Sequence record: PP925830.1 | Strand: one strand, 5' to 3' | From: Escherichia phage CharmingMan | DNA length: 40,665 nt | In this document: positions 25,568 to 26,667 of the stretch, one piece after another | Layout of the letters: every line of letters starts with the position of its first letter | Position numbering within the stretch: position 1 is the first letter of the stretch | Notes under the pieces: generated by a model | What the model saw: the letters and a program-made list of their open reading frames with translations, nothing else | Database searches by the model: none | What the model was told of the DNA's origin: nothing | Position numbers and translations under genes: made by a program

Positions 25568-25590
25568 AAAAAAAGCCACCCGAAGGTGGC
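25568..25590 (-). terminator. Hairpin GCCACC-cgaa-GGTGGC with T-run on minus strand, between I and J
   Basis: Forward A7 (25568-25574) then GCCACC (25575-25580) / GGTGGC (25585-25590); on the minus strand the stem is followed by 7 T. Confidence 0.5.
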
Positions 25591-25609
25591 CAGAAAAAAG
25601 GTTAGTTAT

Positions 25610-26200
25610 CTACTGCTGATCTTCGACATAAATTCCGGCAGAAATAATCGCTCCGCCTATCCGCCGACGGCCATAAAGGAGCGGTACCGGGTAGCCTTGC
25701 GCCGCGGTGTTTGTTACACCACCGAATGCATATGATGCACGGTTATCTGCGCTTTGTTTGCTGGCTAATCCGGTTGGTTGAGGTGATAGCATTTGAACAA
25801 CCCCTCCAAGGATCAAAGCTCCACCAGCTTGATAGAAAAATGGTGATGCTCCAGCAAAGGGCGTGAAATTCAAAACCACCCCGACAGCCACCAATACCGC
25901 GCCTAAAATAGTTTGTAATACACCTGCTTTTTTACTTCCAATCGGCACAGGCATTATTCTGATAACCTCGCCCTTGACAGGAAAGCCTAACTCATCAATG
26001 CCAATATTTTTCTTCCCGCGAAAAACCGCATAAGAAAGCCCCCTTTGCTTACTCGTATTCATGAATTTTTCGAAACCATTAATCGTAGCAGCTAAGGCTT
26101 TGCAAGCTTCTTGAGTTGTGCTTATTGAGCGGTGATGTATTTTACCAAAAGTCTTCCCAAGCACGCCGCCGAGCTCAATGCGAGTCATTACATCTGACAT
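25610..26200 (-). CDS. Tail assembly protein I
   Basis: 196 aa with Gly/Ala-rich hydrophobic C-terminal half typical of lambda gpI; positioned after K. Confidence 0.8.
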   Translation of the reverse strand: MSDVMTRIELGGVLGKTFGKIHHRSISTTQEACKALAATINGFEKFMNTSKQRGLSYAVFRGKKNIGIDELGFPVKGEVIRIMPVPIGSKKAGVLQTILGAVLVAVGVVLNFTPFAGASPFFYQAGGALILGGVVQMLSPQPTGLASKQSADNRASYAFGGVTNTAAQGYPVPLLYGRRRIGGAIISAGIYVEDQQ

Positions 26201-26223
26201 GAATCACCCCAATAAAAAAGCCA

Positions 26224-26245
26224 CCCGGAGGTGGCCTTTGTCTAT
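26224..26245 (-). terminator. Hairpin GCCACC-cgga-GGTGGC with T-run on minus strand, after the lipoprotein gene
   Basis: Forward A6 (26224-26229) then GCCACC (26230-26235) / GGTGGC (26240-26245); near-identical to the hairpin at 25575-25590. Confidence 0.5.
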
Positions 26246-26256
26246 TAAAATTAACT

Positions 26257-26667
26257 CTAGTTTATCGACATCGGGAGTATGTCAACATTCCCACTCTGAT
26301 CGATAAATATCCGTAAAACTCGTGGAGTATTTTCTTTAATTGAAAATTCACGCTCCTTTTTAGGCGCACCATTACATAGGCCTTTCCCGGCAAATCCTGC
26401 CCCTATCAACACATCGCCAGGGTTAAGGAAAGCAGTGACTTTTTCCCCTGTATCAAGTTCCGCCAAATATTTACCATTGATAAAGGCTGTTATAGCACAT
26501 CCACCAGCCACAAAACCTTTATCGCGAATGATAGTTACGGCAGTTGTATTTGTTTTCTGTTGAAATTCTTTTGGTGCTGACACTTCTTTTGCATGTTGCG
26601 GGAGAACTGGCTCTGTAGAACAACCAGCCATAATTAACAAAGAAAGTGCCAATAATGTTTTTTTCAT
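26257..26667 (-). CDS. Lipoprotein moron inserted between tail genes K and I
   Basis: Start at internal ATG 26667 (MKKTLLALSLLIMAGCSTEP: signal peptide with lipobox MAGC); the longer track ORF would overlap gene K. AT-rich relative to K and I. Confidence 0.6.
   Translation of the reverse strand: MKKTLLALSLLIMAGCSTEPVLPQHAKEVSAPKEFQQKTNTTAVTIIRDKGFVAGGCAITAFINGKYLAELDTGEKVTAFLNPGDVLIGAGFAGKGLCNGAPKKEREFSIKENTPRVLRIFIDQSGNVDILPMSIN

Follow-up and report, generated by a model that had tools for sequence, protein, structure and literature searches.

The window analysed here, the whole 40,665-nucleotide stretch of Escherichia phage CharmingMan (PP925830.1), carries a lambda-like tail gene cluster in which a lipoprotein gene lies between the tail genes K and I. 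The minus strand carries, in this order, the tail genes H (28502-31858), M, L and K, then a 136-aa open reading frame (ORF), and then I and J; the products of L and I match their lambda families in Pfam. An initial annotation of this DNA had described a low-GC gene for a 136-aa lipoprotein between K and I, which are adjacent in lambda, and both the gene and its position are borne out: it occupies 26257-26667 of the minus strand and encodes a lipobox. Comparison with related phages showed the gene to be an accessory one, carried as cargo in the hypervariable slot between K and I of a lambda-like (HK97-type) tail cluster. The features of the locus are the following.

26697..27407, minus strand: tail gene K, 236 aa, with JAB/MPN (PF14464, 9e-21) and NlpC/P60 (PF00877, 1e-21) domains in Pfam; upstream flank of the cargo slot.
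26668..26696, minus strand: leader of 29 nt, CCTTTTGCAAAACCAAAGGGGATAGGGAT, from the K stop to the lipoprotein ATG, with the Shine-Dalgarno sequence AAGGGG.
26257..26667, minus strand: cargo gene, prolipoprotein of 136 aa, start MKKTLLALSLLIMAGC, canonical lipobox.
26259..26285, minus strand: promoter-like TTGACA-N15-TAAACT in the 3' end of the lipoprotein ORF, labelled 'promoter' in mEp390 and judged incidental.
26214..26236, minus strand: putative terminator hairpin 1, GGCCACC-UCCG-GGUGGC and U6, closing the K-I cargo slot on its 3' side; the Shine-Dalgarno sequence and ATG of I come next.
25610..26200, minus strand: gene I, whole (PF06805, phrog_32).
25787..26200, minus strand: 5' two-thirds of gene I, residues 1 to ~138, a ubiquitin-like domain and a hydrophobic Gly-rich segment of low GC.
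25610..25786, minus strand: conserved 3' third of gene I, the downstream recombination joint in the I alignment.
25568..25591, minus strand: putative terminator hairpin 2, GGCCACC-UUCG-GGUGGC and U7, at the 3' end of a second cargo slot (I-J).
22116..25556, minus strand: tail tip and host-specificity gene J, with the C-terminal tip class '...RVRMGLW'.

The GC content is 0.39-0.46 over about 25800-26700 and about 0.52-0.59 on both sides. At 0.41 against about 0.55, the lipoprotein gene displays the foreign composition of a moron, and the low-GC tract extends over the 5' two-thirds of I. A mechanical ORF list starts the gene at a GTG 168 nt further 5' (26257-26835, 192 aa), overlapping K, and the mEp390 GenBank record gives a 148-aa version; the MKK start of the 136-aa version appears the credible one, given its Shine-Dalgarno sequence and conserved signal peptide.

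BLAST comparison with nine relatives revealed that homology stops at the K stop or the leader (26618-26719) and restarts at the hairpin region and in I. The lipoprotein gene is common to the window, mEp390 (97.9% identity in this region) and Fostie (92.8%). About forty other HK97-like phages (Hendrixvirinae), among them HK97, HK022, mEp234, mEpX2, HK140, LMessi and Fraca, match in the flanks only. The slot is filled in mEpX2 and HK140 by an unrelated 113-aa lipoprotein with leader and signal peptide as in the window, in LMessi and Fraca by two tandem lipoproteins behind a leader near-identical to the window's, and in HK022 and mEp234 by gp20, a 74-aa membrane protein that is truncated in HK97. 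All types of cargo in these relatives have a GC content of 0.40-0.41, and the slot genes are already labelled morons in the HK97 and HK022 records. In phi80 the genes K and I overlap, and in 7 of 76 related contigs they overlap or directly adjoin each other, which supports the view of the lipoprotein gene as accessory. The comparison of K-I junctions proposed with the initial annotation thus showed an insert that is variable, exchanged for other cargo or absent, as expected of the extra gene of a moron.

For a broader view of slot content, 80 contigs of IMG/VR (L082-L161) were sampled by similarity of I. A lipoprotein of the window's own family, phrog_890, occupies the slot in 32 of them, another lipobox protein in 13, a YebO-like protein in two and another probable secreted protein in four; the slot is empty in seven, holds unclassified cargo in 18, and K lies outside the locus in the remaining four. 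Lipobox proteins of at least five different families were thus seen in the K-I slot, besides Sec-type secreted proteins of ~115 and ~150 aa, YebO-like proteins and larger ORFs of up to 290 aa, and some slots were empty. Across 55 related loci, K is 81-99% identical and the lipoprotein 49-99%.

These observations bear on a structural or assembly role in the tail tip, for which the location between two tail-assembly genes and the wide conservation there could be invoked. Such a role is hardly conceivable. The gene is absent from phi80, HK97, HK022 and the 7 of 76 contigs with K and I abutting, and unrelated proteins replace the lipoprotein in close relatives. All homologues carry a signal peptide and a lipobox, so that the protein is exported from the cytoplasm, the site of tail assembly. 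A function as an immunity protein or inhibitor acting on the NlpC/P60 domain of K was also considered and dropped: K has no signal peptide, phi80 has K without the lipoprotein, and the family members of HK639 and SSU5 lie far from K. Lambda and N15 presumably also keep K without a K-I lipoprotein.

The unit of exchange is larger than the cargo gene. In the alignment of I, the first ~150 columns (~residues 1-138) vary with the type of cargo, and 55-58 of the last 58 residues are identical in all HK97-like relatives. Sequence comparison shows the apparent exchange unit to be the leader, the cargo, the terminator and the 5' two-thirds of I, about 25787-26718, and not the interval from hairpin to hairpin. 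The joints of this mosaic block lie within long conserved sequence on either side, with the leader as upstream and the conserved 3' third of I as downstream joint.

In HK97-like phages, the cargo is inherited in one block with residues 1 to ~138 of I, which could point to a lipoprotein matched to the variable N-terminal or hydrophobic part of I, for instance one binding an incoming I of the same allele. In the same vein, the only tail gene retained by the Pseudomonas satellite AH14b is an I homologue, with a phrog_890 lipoprotein gene directly after it. We give such a partnership a slim chance. The linkage of cargo and I is simply accounted for by the lack of homology for crossover between the end of K and the 3' third of I. 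One and the same middle segment of I is found with two types of cargo, and in the 80 contigs the I mid-region type was not associated with lipoprotein presence (distinct alleles 10/9/9/21, Fisher p = 0.14). The satellite itself, phiAH14b, is a P4-like Pseudomonas prophage of 16.8 kb with a full-length I homologue, 54.5% identical to the I of the window, and no other tail genes; the I homologue is followed by the phrog_890 lipoprotein and then a terminator (L081 3838-4902), in reversed order relative to K-lipoprotein-I.

The two hairpins of the region read GCCACCCGGAGGTGGC at 26220-26235 and GCCACCCGAAGGTGGC at 25575-25590 and are one loop base apart. A motif scan confirmed this near-identical pair with its T-runs: GCCACC-N4-GGTGGC has just two matches in the 40,665 bases and none in 100 shuffles. 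On the coding strand, each hairpin is directly followed by T6 or T7 and then, within 12-19 nt, by the start of I or J; the I-J slot is empty in the window (56 nt), with 12 nt from the U-run to the J start. The folding energy of hairpin 1 with its flanks is -19.2 kcal/mol. A hairpin with a T-run was found at both positions in nine of nine relatives, with any cargo, and the I-J hairpin is kept whether that slot is empty (55-56 nt) or filled by the HK97/HK022 morons gp22/gp23. Both positions are also occupied in almost all of 58 further loci, from which all 39 distinct lipoprotein-to-I spacers fold to a hairpin and T-run. The stems vary in a compensatory manner (CCACC/GGTGG, CCCGC/GCGGG, CCTCC/GGAGG, CCAGC/GCTGG, CCCAC/GTGGG), the same hairpin and T-run design is seen in Pseudomonas phages, and the HK97 depositors annotated putative terminators at both positions. 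With a GC-rich stem-loop, a direct U-run and compensatory changes, these elements have the sequence characters of intrinsic terminators. The terminator-type hairpin reported after the lipoprotein gene is therefore genuine and conserved, and a GC-rich hairpin with U6 provides the downstream terminator of a moron.

The initial annotation had further pictured the twin hairpins as bracketing the lipoprotein gene. One does follow the gene; the pair, however, flanks gene I, and none lies upstream of the lipoprotein. The proposal that the duplicated hairpin marks an insertion boundary or recombination joint had to be abandoned, since both hairpins are kept in relatives and the downstream joint is located inside I, at ~residue 139. 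A reading as scars of duplication or insertion was likewise rejected: the hairpins are present in relatives with other or no cargo, and their persistence whatever the cargo implies that they are not scars of insertion. The stems of the two hairpins are unlike each other in many lineages, so that the twin likeness observed here is lineage-specific. The hairpins are best described as standing 3' ends of cargo slots, with the ribosome-binding site of the next tail gene following.

A comparable arrangement is found in HK97 at the end of the gene-15 moron before H, where a hairpin and T8 are followed by ATGGGTGAAAATATG. H of HK97 and I and J of the window are each preceded by a hairpin, T6-8, ATGG(G/A)G, ~8 nt and ATG (compared sites: window 25550-25600 and 26195-26250; HK97 contig L162 1099-1140). 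This layout suggests a common module of terminator and ribosome-binding site at cargo-slot ends, which might also act as a short target for recombination from slot to slot.

The signal peptide and lipobox of the cargo protein end at Cys16 (codon 26620-26622), with MKKTLLALSLLIMAG preceding the C, and this cysteine is invariant in 38/38 and 50/50 homologues in two alignments. The basic n-region and hydrophobic core of the signal peptide, together with the lipobox and the invariant Cys, mark a bacterial lipoprotein, lipidation being predicted from the sequence. Residue +2 is Ser or Ala and never Asp in the homologue alignments, and Ser in the window protein. By the Lol rule, the +2 residue sets sorting, and Ser or Ala rather than Asp directs a lipoprotein to the outer membrane; the Ser at +2 predicts this destination for the window protein. 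C57 and C98 are invariant in close homologues and nearly so in remote ones, and the same is true of R48-D49 and R119. The AlphaFold (AF2) model of the mature domain is a confident beta-sandwich (predicted local distance difference test score 86, predicted template modelling score 0.80), and its structural neighbours are generic. The ratio of non-synonymous to synonymous substitution rates (dN/dS) is about 0.11 for the lipoprotein and about 0.05 for K and I; it indicates purifying selection, somewhat relaxed, and gene-wide positive selection was rejected on the same value.

The protein has a full-length match to the phrog_890 'lipoprotein' family (E 7.7e-46; residues 1-134 versus profile positions 1-135 of 136). 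It has no match in Pfam at E<=0.1 and none in NCBIfam or in the PADLOC defence-system library. Among 50 remote relatives, 12 match the Pfam family DUF2846 (PF11008; best 2.1e-5), to which the window protein itself has no match, and a literature search found no functional work on DUF2846. The lipoprotein is a conserved and selected gene product of the large uncharacterised family phrog_890, distantly related to DUF2846.

The close homologues form 54 clusters, all from Enterobacterales, with Citrobacter, Klebsiella, Enterobacter, Atlantibacter, Cedecea and Rahnella among their source names. A profile search of 1.84 billion representatives recovered 1096 clusters at E<=1e-3, nearly all of them single-domain proteins of 135-146 aa. 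In loci obtained mainly from IMG/VR (a scan of genome contigs gave four), the phrog_890 lipoprotein lies directly upstream of I in 56 of 58, at 49-99% identity. The K-I position is also occupied by the family in ~54-kb Klebsiella phage-plasmids, a Morganella plasmid and the Pseudomonas phages CF127a and AH14a, at 30-44% identity. Exceptions are HK639, where the gene follows the tape-measure gene, and SSU5 and the locus L065, where it lies outside the tail genes.

This distribution can be read as that of a host-fitness gene comparable to lambda bor, the product of which would change the envelope to the lysogen's advantage, through adhesion or resistance to serum or stress, and have no bearing on other phages. 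The very large size of the family with its distant DUF2846 matches, the copies outside tail clusters (SSU5, L065), the purifying selection and the independence of the lipoprotein from the J tip described below are all in agreement with such lysogenic conversion, and Bor and Lom are precedents for envelope morons without a role in exclusion (PMC3594210). A host-fitness function nevertheless stays doubtful. It does not predict the near-exclusive placement in lambda-like tail-tip clusters across distant hosts, the other cargo of the slot includes a relative of a proven exclusion protein, and a benefit to the lysogen requires expression from the prophage, for which no promoter was found.

On the coding strand upstream of the lipoprotein gene, a consensus scan (>=9/12 matches) found no site. 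A position weight matrix (PWM) scan of K and the leader gave a best score of 7.1, compared with a background best per 780 nt of 7.8 +/- 1.9, and hence no sigma-70-like promoter. The leaders of ~50 homologues, 29-35 nt long, are variable and contain a Shine-Dalgarno sequence, with no conserved promoter-like element. The own promoter of a moron was accordingly not found by consensus and PWM scans, the reach of which does not include non-consensus or activator-dependent promoters. The element TTGACA-N15-TAAACT (26259-26285) has a PWM score of 12.9, and the promoter annotated there in mEp390 was rejected: its -35 box is part of the coding sequence for the invariant NVDI motif, there is free variation at the synonymous sites, and a terminator follows ~15 nt on. 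Judged on its sequence, the gene fits the definition of a moron as an additional transcription unit within a phage operon (PMC3594210) in extra DNA, foreign composition and terminator, and not in promoter.

For a gene embedded in a late operon without a promoter of its own, expression with the tail genes is the default expectation. The lipoprotein would be made chiefly from the antiterminated late transcript, with a contribution of stray transcription from K in the lysogen, where the terminator would shield I and J from such transcription. Late expression is also the basis for considering a lytic-cycle helper, which would alter the envelope of the dying cell such that progeny are not lost on debris or late superinfection is prevented; a similar role is among those proposed for T5 Llp. 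The gene starts 29 nt from the K stop, a distance that would allow coupled expression, in agreement with this idea. It is unlikely all the same, as protection from debris normally masks the phage's own receptor and the absence of co-variation with the J tip speaks against it; a late-made lipoprotein would also have little time for sorting before lysis.

Lipoproteins 93-100% identical to that of the window pair with at least four J tip classes: RVRMGLW in the window, LTGVF in the phi80-like J of mEp390 and Fostie, the HK97-like GSGSF, and RIVLGTW. The slot downstream of J served as a control in the same loci. There, Cor accompanies 7 of 8 LTGVF tips and a 120-aa lipoprotein 4 of 4 RVRMGLW tips, and neither occurs with other tip classes. 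As Cor and the 120-aa lipoprotein track the J tip, the co-variation test has power.

The initial annotation had proposed a superinfection exclusion factor of the Cor/Llp type, which would bind and mask the phage's own outer-membrane receptor. An outer-membrane lipoprotein gene within a siphophage tail cluster is indeed what this role leads one to expect, small lipoproteins of mEp021 and mEp010 encoded near J exclude phages in a receptor-matched manner (PMC11893012), and the authors of AH14a proposed, as a speculation, a Cor-like role for the homologue in that phage (PMC4936722). The proposal nonetheless fares poorly. A protein that blocks the receptor of its own phage is expected to be inherited along with the J tip; the K-I lipoprotein is not, which makes this role improbable. 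It belongs to a different PHROG from Cor, and its match to Llp extends over the signal peptide alone (E 0.41). Both mEp390 and Fostie carry Cor besides the K-I lipoprotein, and near-identical copies of the latter are found with at least four tip classes. The mEp021 lipoprotein, for its part, is an unrelated protein of 72 aa encoded on the opposite strand downstream of J. Receptor-matched exclusion would therefore map to the Cor slot, the content of which co-varies with the J tip, and not to the K-I slot.

In the window, the Cor slot contains the following gene.

20855..21217, plus strand (antisense to the tail genes): second lipoprotein, 120 aa, MKLLFAAALLLLAGC..., phrog_25729, without a Pfam match.

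This gene sits exactly where phi80, mEp390 and Fostie have cor, which the window lacks. Among named phages, full-length relatives of its product occur in LMessi, HK639, Eeyore, LLS and Flotzy only, and in these phages, and no others, J can be aligned through to the final residue of the window J; the closest phage J tip is that of Flotzy (91.6%). Remote relatives of the 120-aa protein were seen in T1-like Klebsiella and E. coli phages. At its C-terminal end (~35 residues, ...FEINGVAGGGRMLISSTLIRIYDSNNVLRVRMGLW; 22116-22300 region), the window J is unlike that of phi80, mEp390 and Fostie, and the preceding ~200 residues are phi80-like. This divergent end implies a receptor or binding mode other than that of the FhuA-type phages. 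The 120-aa lipoprotein is a strong candidate for a new receptor-matched, Cor-like exclusion protein. Further along, a DinI-like gene (PF06183; 18888-19343, plus strand) and the integrase gene (17461-18774, plus strand) are located downstream of the side tail-fibre gene (19439-20728), a layout shared with mEp390, Fostie and phi80.

By analogy, exclusion by the K-I lipoprotein in a broader sense is plausible. HK022 gp20 (L004 2822-3046), one of the alternative occupants of the K-I slot, is a YebO-like protein (PF13974, 2e-12) homologous to HK97 gp15 (L162 904-1092; 43% identity, E 5e-9). HK97 gp15 was experimentally shown to be an inner-membrane exclusion protein that blocks genome entry and not receptors (PMC3594210); for HK022 gp20, no experimental test was found in the literature searched. 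The relationship of gp20 to an exclusion protein, together with the independence of the K-I lipoprotein from the J tip, favours receptor-independent exclusion of other phages, after adsorption and at the envelope, as the function of the K-I lipoprotein, a reading to which we assign a probability of roughly 40%. Lipidation at Cys16 and sorting would place the protein in the outer membrane, as a disulfide-bonded beta-sandwich of ~95 residues on a tether of ~25 residues. The blocked step would be one that is not set by the J tip, namely the passage of tail-tip and tape-measure proteins and of DNA through the envelope, and the K-I lipoprotein may form a second layer beside the receptor-matched lipoprotein of the Cor slot.

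Several points weigh against receptor-independent exclusion. The analogy with gp15 and gp20 is guilt by position between unrelated proteins. No promoter for expression from the prophage was found, which weakens a role in the protection of the lysogen. Family members outside tail clusters (SSU5) or after the tape-measure gene (HK639) are equally compatible with a host-directed function. At megablast level, none of 5,426 complete E. coli genomes contains the lipoprotein allele, and three of the 5,426 have the leader and signal-peptide part alone; the cassette is suggested to circulate mainly outside E. coli. In the literature searched, no experimental work on any member of the phrog_890 family was found. 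The finding as a whole is well supported, but it is that of an ordinary accessory gene in a known slot: the moron slot is already present in the HK97 and HK022 records, and the lipoprotein label in RefSeq for mEp390.

Going further, the DUF2846-like lipoprotein could represent a new class of receptor-independent exclusion specific to lambda-like tails, anchored in the outer membrane, facing the periplasm and intercepting a conserved post-adsorption step such as the exit or membrane insertion of tail-tip or tape-measure proteins. We regard this extension as tentative and rather doubtful. If true, it would explain why no other K-I cargo is as common as this lipoprotein from Enterobacterales to Pseudomonas, why receptor-matched lipoproteins of the Cor slot occur alongside it, and why a Pseudomonas satellite carries just an I homologue and the lipoprotein.

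The K-I junction of lambda-like tails is a rich and easily located hotspot of small exported proteins, almost none of which has a known function, and the phrog_890 lipoprotein family alone accounts for over 1000 sequence clusters. Receptor-matched blockers (Cor and the 120-aa lipoprotein of the Cor slot) can be told from receptor-independent cargo by their co-variation with the J tip, a criterion that offers a cheap way to rank candidates for exclusion and to guess the level at which they act. The phrog_890 family could turn out to be a new receptor-independent layer of exclusion, and a block after adsorption, if true, would open a new way of studying the passage of siphophage tail tips across the Gram-negative envelope.

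Among known systems, the morons of HK97 and HK022 (HK97 gene 15; HK022 gene 20 and genes 22/23) offer the closest parallel. The moron concept reportedly goes back to Juhala et al. 2000. The window gene occupies the same slot as HK022 gene 20, has a foreign GC content and is absent from relatives, and it shares with HK97 gene 15 a hairpin, T-run and ATGGG just before the next tail gene, which is H there and I here. It differs from them by having no recognisable upstream promoter, by encoding a lipoprotein unrelated to the YebO-like single-pass membrane protein, and by an exchange unit that takes in two-thirds of the essential gene I.

Cor, the FhuA-inactivating exclusion lipoprotein of phi80, N15, HK022 and mEp167, resembles the K-I protein as a small lipoprotein of the lambdoid tail region. 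It is, in contrast, a protein of 77 aa and of unrelated sequence, encoded downstream of J after homologues of N15 gp22/gp23. Cor tracks phi80-type J tips (7/8), whereas the K-I lipoprotein occurs with at least four tip classes, and the two coexist in mEp390 and Fostie. No homology of the window lipoprotein to Cor was detected, either by PHROG assignment or against the Cor sequences extracted from the compared loci. The lytic conversion lipoprotein Llp of T5, an FhuA blocker (PDB 8a60), is likewise an outer-membrane lipoprotein of a siphophage; similarity in sequence or fold was not found, the one match being that to the signal peptide.

Lpp021 and Lpp010, from the mEpimmI phages of the mEp collection, exclude phages when expressed from a plasmid and are receptor-matched (OmpA, LamB; PMC11893012). 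Being lipoproteins of temperate E. coli phages with their genes in the structural cluster, they recall the K-I protein, but they are not homologous to it and are encoded downstream of J, in mEp021 on the opposite strand and with a length of ~72 aa. They are closer to the 120-aa gene in the Cor slot of the window than to the K-I gene. With respect to protein families, the window protein is a full-length member of phrog_890, and DUF2846 is reached by its remote relatives alone.

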